Assembly: GCA_965212595.1 (NCBI GenBank)
Contig: CBDBVE010000009.1
Span: 295,939 to 319,938, forward strand
DNA length: 24,000 nucleotides
Direction of reading: 5' to 3'
Origin: Flavobacteriaceae bacterium
GTDB taxonomy: Bacteria > Bacteroidota > Bacteroidia > Flavobacteriales > Flavobacteriaceae
The first letter of the stretch is position 1. Each line of letters opens with the position of its first letter. Below, one piece after another: positions 9,381 to 18,715 of this stretch. The position numbers and the translations under genes are program-made. The notes beneath the pieces were generated by a model that was given only the letters and a program-made list of their open reading frames with translations, did no database searches and was not told the origin of the DNA.

Positions 9381-9431
9381 GATCGTTAAAGGTTTTGAAG
9401 AACCAATATACCATTTAAAAACAGGAAATAC

Positions 9432-9443: not shown

Positions 9444-10628
9444 ATGGCCAACCTCCCCAGAAAGTTGCAAAAAAAACTTAGCGAACGCGATACGAATAAT
9501 GCGCTTCGAAGGATGTATATTCCCGATGGTTTGGTTGACTTTTCATCAAACGATTATCTGGGATTGGCTCAAAACAAGGCCCTGTTCAAATCCACCTCCG
9601 AGATACTTAAAGCCAGAGGCATTCAACACAACGGAGCTACCGGGTCCAGACTACTATCTGGGAATAGTATGCTATACAGGGAAACCGAAGAGTTTCTAAA
9701 ACAGTTTTACAAAGCCCCTTCTGCCTTGGTCTATAATTCTGGTTATGATGCTAATTTGGGTTTCTTTTCTGCCGTTCCACAGCGAAACGACTATATTTTC
9801 TACGATGAATTGGCACATGCAAGTATCAGAGATGGTATTAAACTGAGTAATGCCAAAAGCTATAAGTTTGAGCATAATAATATTGAGGATCTGGAACGGA
9901 AAATTTCTCGCTCTTTTGGAGCGCAGTCAAGAACTGAGGAGAGCGAGGTATACATTGTTACCGAATCTGTTTTCTCGATGGACGGAGACTCCCCGGAACT
10001 TGCCGACCTTATAAATTTCTGCACAAAAAACAACTTTCACCTCATAGTGGATGAAGCACATGCCGTGGGTGTTTTTGGAGCCCATGGAGAGGGGCTTTTA
10101 CCTCAGTTGCAGTTGGAAAACTCTGTATTCGCGAGGATAGTAACTTTTGGGAAAGCAGCGGGAGTACATGGCGCCGCAATTTTGGGATCAGAAGCCCTTA
10201 TGACTTTTTTAATCAATTTTACCAGAAGCTTTATTTACAGCACCGGCCTACCACCACATTCATTGGCTGCGATTCTAGCGGCTCATGAGGCCCTAAAAGG
10301 AACGGAAGCAGAAGAATTGCGAACAAGGCTTACCGAAAATTGTATGCTTTTTCAGGAACAGCTTAATACCAGAAACCTAAAGCCGTATTTTATTAAAAGC
10401 GATTCGGCCATACAGTCTTGCATAATCCCAACCAACGACCGGGTTAAAAATGTGGCGGAGAAACTCCAAGCGCTGAAATTCGATGTGCGACCCATACTTT
10501 CACCTACAGTTCCCCAGGGTTTTGAACGTCTTCGTTTTTGTCTTCATAGCTTCAATAGCAAGAAGGAAATCAGTGAGGTTTTGGCTATCTTGGCAGTATT
10601 ATTACAAGCCGACTTAAATGGGAAATGA
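9444..10628 (+). CDS. bioF: 8-amino-7-oxononanoate synthase
   Basis: 394 aa. Alpha-oxoamine synthase fold markers are SNDYLGL, DEAHAVGVFG, FSMDGD and the PLP-lysine context TFGKAAG. Sits in a bio gene neighbourhood. Confidence 0.92.
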   Translation: MANLPRKLQKKLSERDTNNALRRMYIPDGLVDFSSNDYLGLAQNKALFKSTSEILKARGIQHNGATGSRLLSGNSMLYRETEEFLKQFYKAPSALVYNSGYDANLGFFSAVPQRNDYIFYDELAHASIRDGIKLSNAKSYKFEHNNIEDLERKISRSFGAQSRTEESEVYIVTESVFSMDGDSPELADLINFCTKNNFHLIVDEAHAVGVFGAHGEGLLPQLQLENSVFARIVTFGKAAGVHGAAILGSEALMTFLINFTRSFIYSTGLPPHSLAAILAAHEALKGTEAEELRTRLTENCMLFQEQLNTRNLKPYFIKSDSAIQSCIIPTNDRVKNVAEKLQALKFDVRPILSPTVPQGFERLRFCLHSFNSKKEISEVLAILAVLLQADLNGK

Positions 10629-10998
10629 ATTCTATACTTTGGGCATTTTTTCACATCTCGCAGATGCACACATCATAAGGGCGAAGCTAGAATCTGAAGG
10701 AGTTCCTACCTTTGTTTTAGAGGAAAATAGAACCTACGCAAACCCCACTCAGGGAACAGCAATTAGCGGAATTAAACTTCAAGTTTATACGCGAGACAAA
10801 GACCTGGCAATTGCGATTTATGATGAGATAAGAAACTATGCTTTAGACAAGGAAGGGAAGCCTGTTGTTTGCCCTAATTGCAAAGCTCAAAAATCTGAAG
10901 TTTATTATAGTAGAAAGGGCCTTATCAATAAGTTGTTTCCCTTTTTTGAAAAGAAAAAATACCGATGTACCAATTGTCAAATGATTACCAAATCTTGA
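10618..10998 (+). CDS. DUF2007-like (putative signal-transducing, PII-like fold) protein with C-terminal CxxC...CxxC zinc ribbon
   Basis: 126 aa. The N-terminal pattern (A.IIRAKLESEGVPTFVLEEN...) resembles DUF2007. The C-terminus carries CPNC (x28) CTNC. The start overlaps the bioF stop by 11 nt and the ORF ends 4 nt before bioD. Confidence 0.6.
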   Translation: MGNEFYTLGIFSHLADAHIIRAKLESEGVPTFVLEENRTYANPTQGTAISGIKLQVYTRDKDLAIAIYDEIRNYALDKEGKPVVCPNCKAQKSEVYYSRKGLINKLFPFFEKKKYRCTNCQMITKS

Positions 10999-11002
10999 GC
11001 TG

Positions 11003-11620
11003 ATGAAGCGAATTTTCGTAACAGGTATATCTACCGAAGTTGGTAAAACTATTGCTTCTGCTATCGTGGTTGAAGCCCTGGAGGCTGATTATTGGAAACC
11101 TATACAGGCAGGAGACCTGGAGAATTCGGATAGTCTCAAAATAAGTGAGTTGGTTTCTAACTCCAAGACGGTAATTTACAAAAACAGCTATGCCTTGCAG
11201 ACTCCCATGAGCCCACATGGAGCGGCCGCTCTTGATGATATTGAAATAAAATTGGATCGTATAGTTGAGCCGGAAACAGATAATCATTTGATCATTGAAG
11301 GAGCTGGCGGATTGATGGTTCCATTGAATGATAATGAAACTATTTTAGACATAATTAAACCTACCTACACGGTTATCGTCGTATCGCGCCACTATCTGGG
11401 AAGTATCAATCATACCTTACTGACTATAGATAGGCTGATAAACCATGGGTTTAAAGTTCATTTGATATTTAGCGGTGATGAACACCCCTCTACAGAATCT
11501 ATCATATTAAAGAAAACAGGAGTCTCGCTTATTGGAAGAATAAATGAAGAAAATGCATTTACCAGGAGACGGGTAAAGGACTATGCCAATTTGTTTCTCC
11601 CGAATTTGATATCAATCTAA
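11003..11620 (+). CDS. bioD: dethiobiotin synthase
   Basis: 205 aa. N-terminal IFVTGISTEVGKT P-loop, then EGAGGLMVPL. Confidence 0.92.
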   Translation: MKRIFVTGISTEVGKTIASAIVVEALEADYWKPIQAGDLENSDSLKISELVSNSKTVIYKNSYALQTPMSPHGAAALDDIEIKLDRIVEPETDNHLIIEGAGGLMVPLNDNETILDIIKPTYTVIVVSRHYLGSINHTLLTIDRLINHGFKVHLIFSGDEHPSTESIILKKTGVSLIGRINEENAFTRRRVKDYANLFLPNLISI

Positions 11621-13111
11621 ACGTTTGTAAACTGTGGCCTTTCCAATTTTCTCTATTAAGCTGTAGTGCTGATTAAGGTAAGCTGCAAAATAGGCGTATA
11701 CCTCCTCCTTATGATCTGCATTAAATGGTATTCTGGCTCCCTTGGTTACAATGATTTTTGGCGCCTTTTCATGTAGGATGTACTTGAGCTCGTCCAGGCT
11801 AGTTTTGCGATCGTTTTCCATATATGTAAAAAGCTGGTCTCTCATCAAATTCGAAGGATGTGTTGTGGCCTTGGTTATAGGTTTTTGGCCCAACACCCAA
11901 TACCCTATATGGAATTCAAGAAACCAAATACTGCCTGAATCTAGTTCGTTTTCCACTAAGTACTTTGGGACATCAATACCTTCTCCATTGAACAGCGTTT
12001 GGTGCTGACTGTAATTTTTGGCTATTGCATAATATTCAAGGTAACTTTCCATAGGGACAAGTAATAGGAGAAAAACCGATATCCTTACAAACCATTTGGA
12101 AGTTGAAATAGGGTAGTGCAGTATAAAGGAAAATAGAAGGAGGATTAAAAAAGGATAAAGCTGAATTAAATAATGCCCATTTATTTTTCCCACCTTGTAG
12201 AAGGAAAATAATATTCCGGCAACTGCTAAAAGCAGTAATGCCAGTTGTTGGTTATTTTGCAATACTGCAGTTCTTTTATTCCAGCGAACAAAACCAACTA
12301 TTAAAAGCGCAATTACGATAATTGGTATTATGGTATCTAGCCGTTCCGAAAAAGGAACCTCTCCATAAGCAAGGGATGCCTGTATGACAGATTGCCACCA
12401 TACTTCACCGAACCCTGAGGATGCATATAACAAGTAGAGCAAGGCAACGGGAATAAGAATGCCAAGCCCAAGTCCTATCATAGAAATTAGGGCGGTACGA
12501 AACCCATTTTTTTTGATCAAAAAATAAAAGAGACCAAGCACGAGTAGTAAGACTGCATAAGACAAATTCAATTTTGTCATGAGGGCACAGCCGAAAAGCG
12601 TACCAGAAACCAGCAAGAGTGGTAATCTTTGCGTATTTATTAGCAGGTAAAGCCCTCCAAGGAAAAAGAACATGGATAAATGCTCAGACATAACCCCTTG
12701 AAGGCTTCCAAATAAACTACTTAGGATTACATAGAAGATGGCAGACCAGATTCCTACTTTTTTAGTATTAATAGTAGTGCCAATTGCATAGAGAAAAAAG
12801 GCTCCTAAAGCAACTACAAGGGTTCCGGCTGCGCGTATGGCTATAAAGCTCTTGCCGAAAACTGCGATTACTCCCGCGAAGAATAGAAAAGCCAAGGGAG
12901 GTTTTAGGTCCCACAAAAGCGTATAAGGCAGGTGGCCATCTAGCCATGACTGGCCAACTAATATGAATGTACTCTCATCTAAATCTACATAATCCCTGAA
13001 AAAAAAGGGAAACCTGATTAATAAGGCTAAAACAAAAAGAAAAAGAAAAACTCTTTTCCTCTTCAATTCATGGTAGTTGGGTATAAGAGATGTTATAACT
13101 TTGTCTAGCAT
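11612..13111 (-). CDS. GT-C fold glycosyltransferase (family 39 / ArnT-PMT-like) integral membrane protein
   Basis: 499 aa and highly hydrophobic, with many predicted TM segments. It has an early-loop acidic motif (YVDLDESTF) like GT-C enzymes and a soluble C-terminal domain. A near-consensus -7 box (TATCTTTC) lies on the minus strand at 13142-13149. Confidence 0.65.
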   Translation of the reverse strand: MLDKVITSLIPNYHELKRKRVFLFLFVLALLIRFPFFFRDYVDLDESTFILVGQSWLDGHLPYTLLWDLKPPLAFLFFAGVIAVFGKSFIAIRAAGTLVVALGAFFLYAIGTTINTKKVGIWSAIFYVILSSLFGSLQGVMSEHLSMFFFLGGLYLLINTQRLPLLLVSGTLFGCALMTKLNLSYAVLLLVLGLFYFLIKKNGFRTALISMIGLGLGILIPVALLYLLYASSGFGEVWWQSVIQASLAYGEVPFSERLDTIIPIIVIALLIVGFVRWNKRTAVLQNNQQLALLLLAVAGILFSFYKVGKINGHYLIQLYPFLILLLFSFILHYPISTSKWFVRISVFLLLLVPMESYLEYYAIAKNYSQHQTLFNGEGIDVPKYLVENELDSGSIWFLEFHIGYWVLGQKPITKATTHPSNLMRDQLFTYMENDRKTSLDELKYILHEKAPKIIVTKGARIPFNADHKEEVYAYFAAYLNQHYSLIEKIGKATVYKRLD

Positions 13112-13178: not shown

Positions 13179-14447
13179 TTGAAAAATCTCTCCGAACGGG
13201 ACCAAAAACACCTATGGCATCCGCTTACTCAGCACAAATTGAGGCCAAAAGCTCTGGGGATTACAAAAGCAAAGGGAGTTTTTATATACGATGAAAATGG
13301 CAAGGAGTACATTGATGGTATTGCTTCATGGTACACCAGTATGTACGGGCATTGTAATGATTATATCCTTGAACGTGTTCAGCAGCAAATGCAAGTACTT
13401 GATCAAGTGGTCTTTAGTGGTTTTACTCATGAGCCTGCCGTACGCTTATCTGAAACCCTTATAGAAATTTTGCCAGACAATCAGGAGAAACTATTTTTTT
13501 CTGATAACGGATCTACGGCTGTAGAAGTTGCCATAAAGATGGCCTTGCAATATCACCACAACAAAGGAGAAAAGAGAAATGTGCTACTGGCCTTTGAAGA
13601 AGGTTTTCACGGAGACACTTTTGGTGCCATGTCTGTTTCAGGCCTTTCTGTCTACAATGGCCCTTTTGAGGATTTTTTCATTTCCGTAGAACGCGTACAA
13701 GTACCCTCAGCAGAGAATATAGAACAACTTCTCCCTCAACTAGAAGAACGCATCAAAATGGGAGACGTTGCAGGATTCATTTATGAACCCCTTGTTCAGG
13801 GTGCAGCTGCGATGAAAATGCACGAGGCCAGATTTTTAGAACAGGTTTTAGATCTGCTACAGTCTTATGGAGTCATTACCATAGCCGATGAGGTAATGAC
13901 AGGTTTTGGAAAGACCGGCAAGTATTTTGCCTCAGATCACCTTGAGATTAAACCAGATATCATTTGTATGTCTAAAGCATTGACTGCGGGTCTGGTACCT
14001 ATGGCTGTTACAAGCTGTTCGCAGAAAATCTACGATGCTTTTTACAGCGATGAATTGGCAAAGGGCCTATTTCACGGGCATACCTATACGGCCAATCCGC
14101 TTGCGTGCACTGCCGCTTTAGCAGGGCTAGAATTGCTAAAGTCTGCAGAAATGCAATCTAATATACAGCGGGTCATAAAGTCTCATATGAAGTTCGATAA
14201 GGAAATACAAAATCATCCGAAGGTAGGTAGTACCAGGCAATGTGGGGTAATATTTGCTCTAGACCTGGACATTGAAATGGAACGCTATGGGAGCTTGCGT
14301 GACCAGCTATTCGATTTTTTCATGGCCGATGGTATTTTCCTGCGGCCTTTAGGGAATACGATTTATATTTTGGCACCGTATATTATTGAAGAGGCCCAAC
14401 TTCAACAGGTTTATGACAGCATTCGTAAAGCTTTGGATTATTTCTAG
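13179..14447 (+). CDS. bioA: adenosylmethionine--8-amino-7-oxononanoate transaminase
   Basis: 422 aa. Class-III aminotransferase markers are HLWHP, GFHGDT, ADEVMTGFGKTG and the PLP-lysine context MSKALTAG. Apparent TTG start, with no in-frame ATG nearby. Confidence 0.93.
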   Translation: MKNLSERDQKHLWHPLTQHKLRPKALGITKAKGVFIYDENGKEYIDGIASWYTSMYGHCNDYILERVQQQMQVLDQVVFSGFTHEPAVRLSETLIEILPDNQEKLFFSDNGSTAVEVAIKMALQYHHNKGEKRNVLLAFEEGFHGDTFGAMSVSGLSVYNGPFEDFFISVERVQVPSAENIEQLLPQLEERIKMGDVAGFIYEPLVQGAAAMKMHEARFLEQVLDLLQSYGVITIADEVMTGFGKTGKYFASDHLEIKPDIICMSKALTAGLVPMAVTSCSQKIYDAFYSDELAKGLFHGHTYTANPLACTAALAGLELLKSAEMQSNIQRVIKSHMKFDKEIQNHPKVGSTRQCGVIFALDLDIEMERYGSLRDQLFDFFMADGIFLRPLGNTIYILAPYIIEEAQLQQVYDSIRKALDYF

Positions 14448-14890
14448 TTTTCCACGGCTGGGCTTTCTTCAGACTTTTCTAGCAAATTAAACTCCTCAGC
14501 ATCAGTGACCTCTAGCCGGATTTCATGATAGACCCATTCATCCTCCTCGCCACTGGCATCGATATATAAAGTTCCCTTTCCTTTTGGGCCGCTGACAGGA
14601 ATACTAAGCTTTGCACTCTTTTTACCGTTTGTCCATTGAATATTGCCCTGTATCATTCCGTCTTTTTCAATAGGAGAACCCATGGTGGCTACGATTTCTT
14701 CATCCTTATTGATTTTTTCTAAAGCGTATTGGTAGGGAGCAGAATCCTCTAGCATTGAAGTAACTCCGAAAAAGATCGATCCCATAAATACAACAAATAA
14801 TACAATAAGTGTCATACAACCACCCAGTGGCACTACCCATTTCCAGTTTCTTTTCCACCAACCTGGCTGTGGGACTAATTCATTATCCAT
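14444..14890 (-). CDS. Coa1-like (cytochrome c oxidase assembly factor Coa1 family) single-pass membrane protein
   Basis: 148 aa. N-terminal WWKRNWKWVVPLGG plus one TM helix, then a soluble domain. Resembles bacterial Coa1-family annotations. Function not established. Confidence 0.5.
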   Translation of the reverse strand: MDNELVPQPGWWKRNWKWVVPLGGCMTLIVLFVVFMGSIFFGVTSMLEDSAPYQYALEKINKDEEIVATMGSPIEKDGMIQGNIQWTNGKKSAKLSIPVSGPKGKGTLYIDASGEEDEWVYHEIRLEVTDAEEFNLLEKSEESPAVEN

Positions 14891-14930
14891 AGTTTTTATT
14901 GGAATATCTTTTTATGAAGATAAGAACTTT

Positions 14931-14938
14931 TATTTTTG
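14931..14938 (+). promoter_or_regulatory. Bacteroidetes-type -7 promoter box (TATTTTTG) for the KAS gene, preceded by TAAGAAC
   Basis: Perfect TAnnTTTG, 15 nt upstream of ATG 14953. The 18-nt block TAAGAAC-TTT-TATTTTTG (14921-14938) recurs upstream of bioB. Confidence 0.5.
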
Positions 14939-14952
14939 CCCAAATTCTTCTG

Positions 14953-16119
14953 ATGATCAATAGCCCAATATCAATTGTAGCCTTTGGATCTGTTTCTGGC
15001 TTAGGAGGTTCCGAAAACACTATTTGGAGCAACTATAAGGAAAATGTACATTTTATTCAACAGAAGTTGATTGGGAATGCCCAAAGCTGGGTTTCTCCTC
15101 TGAATCCTGAACTTGATGAAGAAATTACAAGTTTAAGACAATCTCAGCCTTATTATAGTGATCTGGATGAAAGTGTGCTGTATGCCATTGCCGCGGCAAG
15201 AAGGGCAGTTGCTAAAACCGGATGGGATACTTCAGAGAATTACGGAATCAACATAGGGTCTTCCAGAGGGGCAACCTCATTATTTGAACAATATCACCAG
15301 GAGTTTATTTTAAACAAGCAGATTGCCACTCTAAGCTCACCTACAACCACTTTAGGAAACATTTCATCCTGGGTTGCAAGTGATCTAGGTAGCAATGGCC
15401 CCGAATTTTCCCATTCCATAACCTGCTCCACTGCTTTGCACGCTTTGCTGAATGGGATAGCCTGGATAAATAGTGCCATGGCTTCACGGTTTTTGGTAGG
15501 AGGTAGCGAGGCACCCCTTACACCATTTACCATAGCGCAAATGCAAGCCCTTAAAATTTACTCAAGAGAAGAAAGTGATTATCCCAGCAGGCCACTGGAT
15601 TTTGATAAAACACAGAATACTATGGTTTTAGGAGAAGGCGCCTGTGTTGCCGCTCTGGAAAAAGGAATTTCTAATGAAGCTCTGGCAATTGTAGAAGGCG
15701 TGGGATATGCCACAGAGCCGCTGCAACATCCCGTATCCATTTCGGCCGATGCGGTCTGCTTTCAGAAATCGATGAAAATGGCTTTAGGAAACTTAAGACC
15801 AGAAGAAATCGATGTTGTTGTAATGCACGCACCCGGAACTGTAAAGGGAGATTTGTCTGAATTGAAGGCAATTCAAAAAATCTTCGGTACTCAATTGCCT
15901 GCTCTTACCACCAATAAATGGAAAATTGGACATACGTTTGGAGCTTCCGGAATGTTAAGTGTAGAAATGGCTTGCCTAATGCTAAGGCATCAAGAGTTTG
16001 TCGCTCCTCCCTTTCAGGCTGCCGGAGGAATTCCGGATAAACTCAATCGGATTCTGGTAAATGCAGTAGGTTTTGGAGGAAATGCGGTTAGTGTTCTGCT
16101 AAAAAAACCTCAGTTTTGA
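14953..16119 (+). CDS. stand-alone beta-ketoacyl synthase, KAS I/II (FabB/FabF)-like, Cys-His-His type
   Basis: Active-site Cys context SITCSTALHAL, first His VVMHAPGTVKGD, Lys/second His NKWKIGHTFGASG, and C-terminal GFGGNAVSVLL. The track ORF starts at TTG 14899, but ATG 14953 (MINSPISIVAFGS...) matches KAS N-termini and lies downstream of the -7 box. Confidence 0.85.
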   Translation: MINSPISIVAFGSVSGLGGSENTIWSNYKENVHFIQQKLIGNAQSWVSPLNPELDEEITSLRQSQPYYSDLDESVLYAIAAARRAVAKTGWDTSENYGINIGSSRGATSLFEQYHQEFILNKQIATLSSPTTTLGNISSWVASDLGSNGPEFSHSITCSTALHALLNGIAWINSAMASRFLVGGSEAPLTPFTIAQMQALKIYSREESDYPSRPLDFDKTQNTMVLGEGACVAALEKGISNEALAIVEGVGYATEPLQHPVSISADAVCFQKSMKMALGNLRPEEIDVVVMHAPGTVKGDLSELKAIQKIFGTQLPALTTNKWKIGHTFGASGMLSVEMACLMLRHQEFVAPPFQAAGGIPDKLNRILVNAVGFGGNAVSVLLKKPQF

Positions 16120-16152
16120 TATCAGGACGAAATGTTCTATGAATTTAGAATT

Positions 16153-16166
16153 TGTTCTTAAGAACA
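16153..16166. promoter_or_regulatory. Perfect 14-bp palindrome TGTTCTTAAGAACA abutting the bioB promoter (candidate operator)
   Basis: Self-complementary 14-mer ending 2 nt before the bioB -7 box. A degenerate copy (TGTTCT-N8-AGAATT) lies 20 bp upstream at 16133-16152. Confidence 0.3.
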
Positions 16167-16168
16167 CC

Positions 16169-16176
16169 TATTTTTG
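16169..16176 (+). promoter_or_regulatory. Bacteroidetes-type -7 promoter box (TATTTTTG) for bioB
   Basis: Perfect TAnnTTTG, 23 nt upstream of ATG 16199. It lies inside the block TAAGAAC-ACC-TATTTTTG (16159-16176). Confidence 0.5.
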
Positions 16177-16198
16177 ATTTTTGAATTATCTGAACCCT

Positions 16199-17299
16199 AT
16201 GAGCGAGGTAAAACACAATTGGACAAAAGAGGAGATCCTCGAGATTTATAACAAACCCTTTATGGAGTTGCTTTATGAAGCGGCTAGTGTGCATCGCAAA
16301 TTTCATGACCCTAATACCGTACAGGTTTCTACCTTGCTGTCCATTAAGACGGGAGGTTGCCCCGAAGACTGCGGGTATTGCCCACAGGCGGCCCGATATC
16401 ACACCAATGTGGAAGGGAATGATTTGATGTCTGTTCAGCAGGTAAAAGCCCAGGCTCTAAGAGCGAAAGCTACGGGAAGCTCAAGAGTTTGTATGGGCGC
16501 GGCATGGAGAAATGTAAAAGACGGCCCGGAATTTGACGAAGTTCTTGAAATGGTACGCACCATTAACAAGTTAGACATGGAAGTATGCTGTACTTTAGGA
16601 ATGTTGACCGAGAACCAGGCCAAGCGCTTGGCAGAAGCCGGTTTGTATGCCTACAACCATAACCTCGATACTTCTGAAGATTATTACAAAGATGTGATCT
16701 CTACCCGGGCCTTTGAAGACCGATTAGAGACCATAGATAACGTAAGAAAAAGCAATGTTACAGTCTGTAGCGGCGGAATCATTGGTATGGGAGAAAGACT
16801 CGAAGACAGGGCGGGTATGCTAGTGGCCTTATCTTCCTTAAACCCCCAACCCGAATCCGTACCCATTAATGCGCTCGTAGCTGTTGAAGGAACCCCGATG
16901 GAGGACATTCCACCCATTCCTATTTGGGATATGATAAGGATGGTGGCTACGACCAGGATTATCATGCCAAAGACGCAGGTGAGGCTGTCAGCGGGCCGTA
17001 CAGAGATGAGTAAAGAAGGACAGGCGATGTGTTTTTTCGCAGGAGCCAATTCAATTTTTGCGGGAGATAAATTGCTGACAACCCCAAATCCGGATGTCAA
17101 TGAGGATATGGAACTCTTTGAACTCCTTGGATTAACTCCGCAGAAACCCTTTATTAAAGCGTCCAAACCGCTAACCATTGAGGCAGAAGAATCTCAATAT
17201 AAGGCTTTGGGAGAGCGCCCAAAATGGACACGCCCAGAGCATACCATTTCTCGAAACGAAACTGCAAAAGCCAGCGCAAAAGCTAAGAGGCAATCTTAA
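16199..17299 (+). CDS. bioB: biotin synthase (radical SAM)
   Basis: Radical-SAM CPEDCGYCPQ motif, YNHNLDTS, and auxiliary-cluster Cys residues. ATG 16199 (MSEVKHNWTKEEI...) is preferred over the track's TTG 16181 because of the promoter position and typical BioB N-termini. The C-terminal tail, about 40 aa and K/A/E-rich, is longer than I would expect for BioB. Confidence 0.95.
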   Translation: MSEVKHNWTKEEILEIYNKPFMELLYEAASVHRKFHDPNTVQVSTLLSIKTGGCPEDCGYCPQAARYHTNVEGNDLMSVQQVKAQALRAKATGSSRVCMGAAWRNVKDGPEFDEVLEMVRTINKLDMEVCCTLGMLTENQAKRLAEAGLYAYNHNLDTSEDYYKDVISTRAFEDRLETIDNVRKSNVTVCSGGIIGMGERLEDRAGMLVALSSLNPQPESVPINALVAVEGTPMEDIPPIPIWDMIRMVATTRIIMPKTQVRLSAGRTEMSKEGQAMCFFAGANSIFAGDKLLTTPNPDVNEDMELFELLGLTPQKPFIKASKPLTIEAEESQYKALGERPKWTRPEHTISRNETAKASAKAKRQS

Positions 17300-17339: not shown

Positions 17340-17347
17340 TACCTTTG
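17340..17347 (+). promoter_or_regulatory. Bacteroidetes-type -7 promoter box (TACCTTTG) upstream of the cupin gene
   Basis: Perfect TAnnTTTG. Its TTG is the track's start codon (17345), so if this promoter is functional the true start is more likely TTG 17372. Confidence 0.35.
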
Positions 17348-18232
17348 AAGCTTTATTCAACCAGATTTCATTTGCAGTTAAAGGATATTCCCAGAATACC
17401 GACCATCACTAGAGAGGCGTTCTTAAAGAACTATTTTAGACCTCAAAAACCGGTTGTCATTGAGCGGTTTGTAGAGGACTGGCCTGCCTATGCTAAATGG
17501 GATCTTGAATACATCGAAAAGATTGCCGGAGATAAAATAGTACCCCTATATGACAACAGACCGGTAGATTATAGAGACGGATTTAACCAACCTCATGCAA
17601 AGATGAGGATGTCTGAGTATATAGAACTTCTCAGAAGTGAGCCTACCAAATACCGTATTTTCCTTTGGAATGTTTTAAAAGAGGTGCCCGAACTTCAAAG
17701 CGACTTCTCTTTCCCCGATTTTGGGTTACGCCTAATGAAAAACCTCCCAATGCTCTTTTTTGGTGGAAGAGATTCATACACCTTTATGCATTACGATATA
17801 GATCTTGCCAATATTTTCCATTTTCATTTCGAGGGCAAAAAAGAATGTATCTTGTTTCCACAGACAGAAAACAAGTTTTTGTATAAAGTTCCACATTCCT
17901 TGATTACTCATGAAAGTATTGATTTTTCGGACCCGGATTTTGCTAAATGGCCTGGTTTGAAACACGCAAAGGGATATAAAACGCATCTTGAACATGGCGA
18001 AGTTCTTTATATGCCAGAGGGATATTGGCACTATATGCGTTATGTAACTCCCGGATTTTCAATGAGTTTGAGAGCTATCGCCCGAAACCCCAAAAATCTG
18101 GGACGAGCATTATACAATGTGATCATTATGCGACATTATGATAATTTGATGCGCAGGATGCAGGGGCAGCGTTGGATCGATTGGAAAAATGAGCAGGCAA
18201 TTTCAAGGACAAATAAAGCCTTAAAATATTAG
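17345..18232 (+). CDS. JmjC/cupin-8-like Fe(II)/2-oxoglutarate-dependent oxygenase
   Basis: 295 aa. Pattern FFGGRDSYTFMHYDIDLANIFHFHFEGKKECILFP gives the HxD facial-triad residues and 2OG-binding Lys. The distal His lies in PEGYWHYMRY. Alternative start at TTG 17372 (MQLKDIPRIP...). Confidence 0.75.
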   Translation: MKLYSTRFHLQLKDIPRIPTITREAFLKNYFRPQKPVVIERFVEDWPAYAKWDLEYIEKIAGDKIVPLYDNRPVDYRDGFNQPHAKMRMSEYIELLRSEPTKYRIFLWNVLKEVPELQSDFSFPDFGLRLMKNLPMLFFGGRDSYTFMHYDIDLANIFHFHFEGKKECILFPQTENKFLYKVPHSLITHESIDFSDPDFAKWPGLKHAKGYKTHLEHGEVLYMPEGYWHYMRYVTPGFSMSLRAIARNPKNLGRALYNVIIMRHYDNLMRRMQGQRWIDWKNEQAISRTNKALKY

Positions 18233-18238
18233 AAATAG

Positions 18239-18715
18239 TTATTCTGCGATAAGCTCTCTTACTTTTTGATAGACAAGGTGACTTTCCCAGCCCCGATATA
18301 GTAGATAATCTGCCAGTTTTTTTCTTCTTTTTTGCAAATTGCGGTCTTTTATTTGAATTATACGCTTCCTTGCCAATTGGTCTAAAGTTTTTTGATAATC
18401 TTCCTCCTCAATCTCTCTAAGTGCTATTTTGATATTAAATTCTGAAATATGTCGAGCTTTTAAGGCTGAGATTATCCGTTGTTTGCCCCAGTGTTTGACT
18501 CTAAATTTCCCGCGGGTATACACTTTGGCAAAGCGCTCTTCATTGAGATAGTTTTCGGTGATAAGAAGTCCCATAATTTGATCTATTGCATCGGGTATCA
18601 TTCGCATCTCTCTCAGTTTGTCCTTTACTTCTTTATGGCATCGTTCCTGATAGGCACAATAGCGCTTTATTTTTTTGGTTGCCTCGCTGAGGGTATACGT
18701 CTTCTGCGAATTCAT
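18239..18715 (-). CDS. recX: regulatory protein RecX
   Basis: 158 aa, helical-repeat protein. The pattern (YCAYQERCHKEV..KL...........I...L..E.YLNEERFA..Y.R.K....WGK.RI...L) is typical of RecX. Confidence 0.8.
   Translation of the reverse strand: MNSQKTYTLSEATKKIKRYCAYQERCHKEVKDKLREMRMIPDAIDQIMGLLITENYLNEERFAKVYTRGKFRVKHWGKQRIISALKARHISEFNIKIALREIEEEDYQKTLDQLARKRIIQIKDRNLQKRRKKLADYLLYRGWESHLVYQKVRELIAE

Follow-up and report, generated by a model that had tools for sequence, protein, structure and literature searches.

In bacterial biotin biosynthesis, it is the supply of the pimelate moiety that varies and that is still incompletely understood. Four routes to it have been characterised, based on BioC plus an esterase, on BioI/BioW, on BioZ, and on BioE; a fifth, in Desulfovibrio, is known from genetics only. 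Flavobacteriia, most of which possess bioF, bioA, bioD, and bioB, are considered to be primary producers of biotin in the sea (PMC9561691); in the open-access literature searched, no pimelate source was named for them. The system considered here is a biotin gene cluster from a Flavobacteriaceae bacterium, contained in a stretch of 24,000 nucleotides (GenBank assembly GCA_965212595.1, contig CBDBVE010000009.1, positions 295,939 to 319,938 of the forward strand; hereafter “the window”), and in particular its gene for a β-ketoacyl synthase (KAS) of the FabF clade, which lies between bioA and bioB. KAS is proposed, with moderate confidence, to be a dedicated condensing enzyme of the biotin pathway that performs a single condensation yielding 3-oxopimeloyl-acyl carrier protein (ACP); the broader statement that KAS supplies the pimelate moiety is made with somewhat more confidence.

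One described parallel is BioZ, for which a single ketosynthase step followed by the housekeeping FabG, FabZ, and FabI suffices (PMC7645780). BioZ, too, is a condensing enzyme encoded in a biotin cluster, and it joins a C5 dicarboxylic primer to malonyl-ACP to give 3-oxopimeloyl-ACP, which is the reaction proposed for KAS. BioZ is found in organisms without BioC and BioH; in the KAS clusters and their flanks, no BioC was found. However, BioZ is FabH-like, has a Cys-His-Asn triad, and uses a primer carried by coenzyme A (CoA), whereas KAS has the FabF fold with Cys-His-His plus Lys. The distributions differ as well: BioZ has been reported from α-proteobacteria and from the thermophiles Rhodothermus marinus and Marinithermus hydrothermalis, and the KAS family in Bacteroidota.

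Another parallel is the FabF-like protein DVU2563, encoded in the biotin cluster of Desulfovibrio vulgaris, for which a role in biotin synthesis was predicted earlier (PMC545781) and which was then found from transposon fitness data to be needed for growth without biotin (PMC10102598). This organism has neither bioC nor bioH, and the ACP and the FabG-like and FabZ-like proteins of the cluster are also needed in the absence of biotin (PMC10102598). Compared by its published description, DVU2563 resembles KAS in being a FabF-type ketosynthase of a biotin cluster that is proposed to lead to pimeloyl-ACP without methyl esters. It comes, however, with a dedicated ACP, a FabG-like protein, two FabZ-like proteins, and a nitroreductase-like gene, whereas the Bacteroidota KAS comes alone: no ACP, reductase, or dehydratase gene was found beside it in the window or in the annotated distant loci. 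Reports of the Desulfovibrio-type cluster are, moreover, confined to anaerobic members of a few phyla. A preliminary description of the window held that no FabB/F-clade enzyme had been characterised in biotin synthesis; given the genetic evidence on DVU2563 (PMC10102598), this is valid for biochemical characterisation only.

Two further comparisons are relevant. With the housekeeping FabF, KAS shares the thiolase fold, the Cys-His-His triad, the Lys, the gate Phe, and the GFGG loop, but it is only 21–25% identical to FabF, and the hydrophobic back gate of FabF (I108/F202) is replaced in KAS by Arg/Met and a polar pocket. The usual place of fabF is in the fab cluster next to acpP, whereas KAS lies in biotin operons. 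BioE, described in December 2025, is a ferritin-like diiron oxygenase by which long acyl chains are cleaved to pimeloyl thioesters; it was first described in Weeksellaceae, a family of the same order, and has been reported from several families of Bacteroidota (PMC12704756, PMC12915131). It is thus the pimelate supplier of related Bacteroidota (Weeksellaceae, Pedobacter) and occupies slots equivalent to those of KAS, including that directly behind bioA; its fold and chemistry are, however, unrelated, since BioE (which comes with the BioL repressor) cleaves acyl chains oxidatively at C7–C8.

The ketosynthase and its acyl pocket

The open reading frame (ORF) that begins at 14899 is a TTG-extended reading of the KAS gene; from the ATG at 14953, the gene encodes a protein of 388 residues that is identical to database entry P0001. 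Homologues begin to align at residues 1–6, and the −7 box of the promoter (14931–14938) falls inside the TTG extension. Pfam recognises both halves of a ketoacyl synthase (PF00109, 5e-17; PF02801, 4e-16), and there is no FabH-type (KAS III) family among the Pfam and NCBIfam matches. The AlphaFold2 model has a mean confidence (pLDDT) of 95.8, and its best Foldseek matches are FabF proteins, with template-modelling (TM) scores of 0.88–0.90 at the low sequence identity given above; the top 50 are all of the KAS II type (bacterial FabF and the human mitochondrial ketosynthase), with TM-scores of about 0.84–0.90. By sequence, too, the best solved relatives in a search of the PDB are FabF proteins (E about 1e-29, about 100 bits). 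Against TIGR03150, the fabF equivalog model, KAS scores 132.4 bits, far below the cut-off of 493.75, and is therefore not the housekeeping FabF; none of the other NCBIfam ketosynthase models reaches its own cut-off.

The active-site residues predicted in the preliminary description (a Cys, a His, and a Lys/His pair) can be aligned with the triad and the Lys of FabF: C158 (in ITCSTALHA), H292 (in MHAPGT), and K322 and H327 (in NKWKIGH) correspond to C163, H303, K335, and H340 of the E. coli enzyme, and, when KAS is aligned with both FabF and FabB of E. coli, the gate residue F374 corresponds to F400 of FabF. All five are conserved without exception, both among 137 representatives of the family and in another alignment, which has 65 sequences. 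Judged by these residues, KAS is a genuine, catalytically intact enzyme of the FabF clade.

The acyl pocket is where KAS departs from FabF. The residues that are specific to the family and invariant in it are R105 (GSSRG, within a G-S/T-S/A-R-G motif), E112, S129-P130-x-T132-T133-x-G135, S155 and T157 on either side of the catalytic Cys, F192, T193, Q196, and P294-G295-T296. In a MAFFT alignment and in two independent HMMER alignments, R105 falls on Ile108 of FabF, and every one of the approximately 390 full-length members of the family that were retrieved has an Arg at this position, whether or not it is linked to biotin genes. Relative to FabF, KAS has Gln for G201, Met for F202, Ser for A160, Thr for A162, Ser for V134, and Thr for I138, with Ser129, Thr132, and Thr133 aligning with FabF residues 134–138; in the family as a whole, the Gln for G201 is found in 99% of the proteins, and F202 is replaced by Met, Leu, or Thr. 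The “back gate” of FabF consists of I108 and F202 and is situated at about C7–C8 of the bound acyl chain, and loading of the I108F mutant does not go beyond about C6, as set out in a review of stand-alone ketosynthases (PMC9006962), according to which the methyl ester of glutaryl-ACP is equivalent to a C7 acid at the back-gate site. The KAS pocket is predicted to be short, polar, and positively charged, so as to fit a glutaryl group that is bound to the Cys and has its carboxylate free, and the alignment suggests R105 as the contact for the terminal carboxylate of the primer.

The mechanism proposed for KAS is as follows. The enzyme, presumably a dimer like FabF, would be acylated on Cys158 by an ω-carboxy acyl thioester, most likely glutaryl-ACP or glutaryl-CoA, with the free terminal carboxylate held by the invariant Arg105 in place of the back-gate Ile108 of FabF and with a ring of Thr157, Thr193, Gln196, Ser129, Thr132, and Thr133 making the pocket short and polar. 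Behind the Phe374 gate, malonyl-ACP would then lose its carboxyl group through the action of His292, His327, and Lys322, and a Claisen condensation would give 3-oxopimeloyl-ACP, which the housekeeping FabG, FabZ, and FabI would reduce to the pimeloyl-ACP used by BioF. Neither the methyl-ester disguise (BioC plus esterase) nor an oxygenase (BioI, BioE) would be needed. What we infer in this scheme is that KAS serves in pimelate supply, which primer it uses, the contact between the carboxylate and Arg105, and the use of the housekeeping reductive enzymes.

An alternative, which is unlikely, is that KAS acts iteratively, as proposed for Desulfovibrio: malonyl-ACP would be kept undecarboxylated as the primer and extended from C3 to C5 to C7, using three malonyl units and with free carboxylates throughout. 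Such a scheme would agree with the fact that no KAS cluster contains a gene for glutaryl supply, that the stand-alone KAS is apparently the only added gene, and that the Desulfovibrio model does elongate malonyl-ACP without methyl esters (PMC10102598); a flexible Arg105 with polar residues around it could accommodate a shorter dicarboxylate too. However, Desulfovibrio requires an ACP and FabG-like and FabZ-like proteins of its own, which are missing beside the Bacteroidota KAS, 3-oxoglutaryl-ACP, with a carboxylate adjoining the reaction centre, would have to be accepted by the housekeeping FabG, FabZ, and FabI, and a back gate at about C7–C8 suits a C5 diacid better than a C3 diacid.

As regards the preferred scheme of a single condensation on a C5 primer, the proposal in the preliminary description that KAS is a candidate for a new entry route into the pathway is supported in part, by the intact enzyme, its linkage to biotin genes, and the Arg found throughout the family, and has a FabF-like genetic precedent in Desulfovibrio. 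A more far-reaching formulation, to which about even chances can be given, is that much of the Bacteroidota, including the marine Flavobacteriia as major producers of biotin in the oceans, has a self-sufficient route in which one FabF-derived KAS with an Arg carboxylate anchor in place of the hydrophobic back gate works with ordinary fatty-acid synthesis to make free-carboxyl pimeloyl-ACP, maybe from malonyl-ACP alone. Such a route would dispense with the masking as a methyl ester, with an oxygenase, and with an ACP of its own.

Linkage to biotin genes in the Bacteroidota

Searching 1.84 billion cluster representatives with KAS gave 388 at E ≤ 1e-30; the 150 of these that were listed each score at least 240 bits, far above the approximately 100 bits that solved FabF proteins score against KAS in the separate PDB search. 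A scan using one genome per species found relatives in at least 584 species, and the family reaches the Cytophagales and the Sphingobacteriales. Gene contexts were counted in the best 80 of these species loci, almost all of which are labelled Flavobacteriaceae, with a few metagenome-assembled genomes labelled only as Bacteroidota. KAS lies downstream of bioA and on the same strand in 75 of the 80, in the order bioF-(orf126)-bioD-bioA-KAS; the spacers are often very short or the genes overlap, and the gap from bioA to KAS is at most 41 nucleotides in 23 loci. On the other side, bioB follows KAS on the same strand in 48/80. KAS remains behind bioA also in the genus Flavobacterium, in which bioB is on the opposite strand or remote. 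Hence, the preliminary description was right about synteny with the biotin cluster but not about the partner: it had singled out bioB, which has moved in Flavobacterium, and the conserved partner is bioA.

In close relatives, recX and a cupin gene are also syntenic with the cluster, which makes synteny at the level of the family weak evidence when taken alone, and distant members were therefore sampled. Eight such KAS proteins, 37–43% identical, were taken, and five of them are linked to biotin genes, in different gene orders and among unrelated flanking genes: one locus (L082) reads bioF-D-A-KAS-bioB with an overlap of 4 nucleotides between bioA and KAS, another (L083) reads bioD-KAS-bioB, two (L084 and L090) read bioB-F-D-A-KAS with overlaps, and that of Pontibacter akesuensis (L092) has the same bioB-F-D-A-KAS order. 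The other three (L089, L091, and L093, the last from Pedobacter sp. P351) are away from biotin genes and share no consistent alternative neighbourhood. A linkage kept across orders and rearrangements is a signature of functional association; loss of the synteny in relatives, which the preliminary description had regarded as evidence against a biotin role, was checked for, and the linkage persists even at this level of identity.

These contexts also bear on the possibility that KAS has nothing to do with biotin, serving instead in lipid, pigment, or other secondary metabolism, and owes its position to inherited gene order. The synteny of recX and the cupin gene with bioB in Flavobacteriaceae, although both are unrelated to biotin, is an example of just such inheritance, and the three unlinked distant members could be read in the same way. 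However, the linkage survives between orders (Flavobacteriales, Cytophagales, and unclassified Bacteroidota), in rearranged clusters among unrelated flanking genes, and where KAS and bioA overlap at start and stop, the unlinked members do not point to any other common context, and KAS and BioE exclude each other in the same slot (see below). An unrelated function is very improbable.

The family is a real and conserved one of biotin-cluster ketosynthases with a distinctive, Arg-lined pocket, and it is apparently undescribed. No description of a KAS in the biotin clusters of Bacteroidota was found in open-access papers and bioRxiv, and an earlier description elsewhere is possible.

The unlinked member of Pedobacter sp. 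P351 (L093, 9658–11242) has the arginine signature in full, and its gene overlaps a PTPS/QueD-like gene at the end of the latter.

BioE and the other pimelate routes

The preliminary description stated that none of the pimelate routes that it listed (BioC plus esterase, BioW, the P450 BioI, and the FabH-like BioZ) is recognisable at the locus. This is confirmed by Pfam and NCBIfam scans, in which none of the 20 larger ORFs of the window (the biotin region and its flanks) encodes BioC, an esterase, BioW, a P450, or a FabH-like protein. The list itself, though, omitted BioE, which was therefore considered separately. The window has no ORF with a BioE-type diiron motif (E...EXXH...E...EXXH, expected in a protein of about 205 residues), and in the KAS loci L001–L084 no BioE-like protein is encoded near the biotin genes; the sole match to the motif is an ORF of 326 codons at the far end of L006.

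The converse survey started from BioE. Two conserved BioE peptides were rebuilt from the mutagenesis primers in the published supplement and used to scan metagenome contigs, which yielded 80 loci (L094–L173); the proteins are about 207 residues long, and the diiron motif is present in 72 of the 76 ORFs recovered. BioE is found inside biotin clusters of at least three conserved types, bioE-F-D-B-A, bioA-bioE (with the other biotin genes elsewhere; mainly Pedobacter), and bioB-F-D-A-bioE, and in the latter two it sits in the slot behind bioA that is held by KAS in other species. No match to KAS, orf126, or the cupin was obtained in these 80 loci, 52 of which are at least 15 kb long, at E ≤ 0.01. 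Mutual exclusion in an equivalent slot is a classic sign of non-orthologous displacement, and this exclusion of KAS and BioE, observed at the level of the cluster, is the strongest indirect argument that KAS supplies the pimelate moiety. In some sources, BioE proteins are mislabelled as “rubrerythrin”, “bacterioferritin”, or “YukD”.

The absence of known routes has been shown for the window and the cluster flanks, and this leaves some room for a methyl-ester route of the BioC type, with its genes at another place in the genome, inside which KAS would act. KAS would then be specialised for the methyl esters of malonyl- and glutaryl-ACP, which the FabH and FabF of the host, tuned to branched chains, would handle poorly. 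Genes of the biotin pathway can indeed be unlinked to the others, as is bioH in E. coli, and in Flavobacterium agri (L052) there is an α/β-hydrolase gene, confirmed by Pfam, on the opposite strand between bioF and bioD. However, searching with E. coli BioC (phmmer) revealed no BioC-like ORF in either L001–L084 or the 80 BioE loci, an esterase is not conserved in the KAS clusters, E. coli deals with the methyl esters without a special ketosynthase, and the replacement of a hydrophobic gate by an invariant Arg argues for a charged rather than a neutral ligand. A helper function of this kind is improbable.

Several points weigh against KAS as a dedicated enzyme making 3-oxopimeloyl-ACP from a C5 primer. 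The case for a role in biotin synthesis is computational throughout, and the pocket was mapped by sequence alignment and on an AlphaFold2 model. FabF-type enzymes normally use acyl-ACP primers, and the cluster lacks a gene by which glutarate could be attached to ACP or CoA. The limited scope of the search for known routes and the three distant members away from biotin genes, both mentioned above, count on the same side, as does the fact that Pedobacter commonly has BioE, so that KAS and BioE may occur in one genome.

If KAS does have the proposed role, it would fill the pimelate gap for a large and ecologically important phylum, and genome-based predictions of vitamin auxotrophy would have to be corrected. 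It would also mean that a change at a single gate residue can redirect a ketosynthase of fatty-acid synthesis towards dicarboxylic substrates, and this would be useful for engineering pimelate and biotin production, and KAS would be a possible narrow-spectrum target in the fish pathogens of Flavobacterium and Tenacibaculum.

Promoters and accessory genes of the cluster

The gene map of the window, based on the ORF listing and on the Pfam and NCBIfam family scans, is given in Table 1. All four ring-assembly genes claimed in the preliminary description (bioF, bioA, bioD, and bioB) are present. Outside the biotin block lie glmS, a gene for a TonB-dependent receptor, atpD/atpC, and genes for an M61 peptidase, RNase G, and HU, together with mutY and ssb, none of which has a relation to biotin.

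Table 1. Features of the biotin region (positions within the window)
Feature	Position	Strand	Basis or remark
bioF (8-amino-7-oxononanoate synthase; consumer of the pimeloyl thioester)	9444–10628	+	Pfam Aminotran_1_2; TIGR00858 is the best NCBIfam match, at 328 bits, yet under its cut-off of 426
orf126 (126 residues)	10618–10998	+	sub-threshold DUF2007 and zinc-ribbon matches; no family at E ≤ 0.001
bioD (dethiobiotin synthase)	11003–11620	+	Pfam AAA_26; TIGR00347, 113.8 bits, over its cut-off
PMT_2-like membrane protein (glycosyltransferase-like)	11612–13111	−	family scan
bioA (adenosylmethionine-8-amino-7-oxononanoate transaminase)	13179–14447	+	TIGR00508, 537 bits
Coa1-like membrane protein	14444–14890	−	family scan
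KAS promoter block, AAGAAC-TTT-TATTTTTG	14922–14938	+	sequence read
KAS (388 residues, FabF clade)	14953–16119	+	Pfam ketoacyl-synt, N- and C-terminal domains
KAS–bioB spacer (79 nucleotides)	16120–16198	+	sequence read
perfect 12-bp palindrome, GTTCTTAAGAAC	16154–16165		overlaps the presumed bioB promoter
bioB promoter block, AAGAAC-ACC-TATTTTTG	16160–16176	+	sequence read
bioB (biotin synthase)	ORF from 16181, ATG 16199, end 17299	+	TIGR00433, 399.5 bits; Radical_SAM and BATS
Cupin_8/JmjC-like protein (putative oxygenase)	17345–18232	+	Pfam Cupin_8, 1e-31; 45 nucleotides 3′ of bioB
recX	18239–18715	−	family scan

The stand-alone KAS gene, with its stop codon at 16117–16119, ends exactly 79 nucleotides before the ATG of bioB, as had been described, and no terminator-like site or hairpin was detected in this spacer, again in agreement with the preliminary description. 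The near-identical promoter block said there to be common to KAS and bioB is real, since the two AAGAAC-N3-TATTTTTG blocks agree in 14 of 17 bases. Their core matches the −7 promoter element of Bacteroidetes (TAnnTTTG), by which the blocks mark two promoters. The 17-mer of the KAS promoter is kept upstream of KAS in four loci in which a Coa1-like gene also sits between bioA and KAS (L020, L047, and L058, and, with one change, L035), and the TATTTTTG −7 box recurs 5′ of bioB in most related loci. Since bioB has a −7 box of its own, conserved in most species, the earlier statement that KAS is “fused into the bioB transcription unit” overstates the case: KAS and bioB each appear to have a promoter of their own, and read-through from KAS into bioB is possible but is not a conserved feature.

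A shared operator linking the biotin promoters was considered on the basis of the palindrome GTTCTTAAGAAC and rejected. A relative with two mismatches, GTTTTGAAGAAC, lies at 9392–9403, about 40 nucleotides upstream of bioF, and the AAGAAC half-site is present upstream of the KAS gene; however, matches in the window are no commoner than expected by chance (16 found against 14.7 expected), and other species do not keep the AAGAAC part in front of bioB. The palindrome is thus no evidence of co-regulation.

An Rfam scan of the window found no known RNA. Sediminicola luteus (L002) has a match to the Flavo-1 RNA motif (Rfam RF01705, 52.5 bits, E = 1.3e-10) at 11354–11457 on the + strand, within a KAS–bioB spacer of 375 nucleotides, and a similar sequence is found there in L005 and L010.

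Of the accessory genes, orf126 overlaps the end of bioF and encodes a protein with a weakly DUF2007-like N-terminus and a C-terminal zinc ribbon (CxxC...CxxC). It is present between bioF and bioD in about 50 of the 80 Flavobacteriaceae loci and absent from the annotated distant KAS–biotin operons and from the BioE loci; its product may have an accessory or regulatory function in clusters of this type.

The cupin gene, which the preliminary description had considered together with KAS, lies outside the conserved module. It follows bioB in many marine Flavobacteriaceae loci, but so does recX, and it is not found in Flavobacterium, in the annotated distant KAS–biotin operons, or in any of the BioE loci. 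Its placement is probably a matter of lineage synteny rather than of membership in the module, and the idea of the cupin as a partner enzyme of KAS was rejected on the grounds of its absence from the distant operons and the equal synteny of recX. Co-transcription of the cupin gene with bioB is possible.

The cluster of the window is interrupted by the two membrane-protein genes on the opposite strand (PMT_2-like and Coa1-like), and a subset of genera has the same insertions; the fullest match to this pattern is in Poritiphilus flavus (L047), the bioB of which is 90% identical, and this suggests a related marine flavobacterium as the origin of the window. Genes that fill gaps inside some of the other clusters are unrelated insertions; besides the α/β-hydrolase gene of L052, they resemble, by sequence, those for a TraB/GumN-like protein, a membrane protein, an extracytoplasmic function (ECF) sigma factor, a transporter of the AI-2E type, and a pair of NfeD and flotillin. 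In a single distant metagenomic locus (L083, 8734–9243, + strand), a gene for a thioesterase of the 4HBT family lies directly 5′ of bioD-KAS-bioB.

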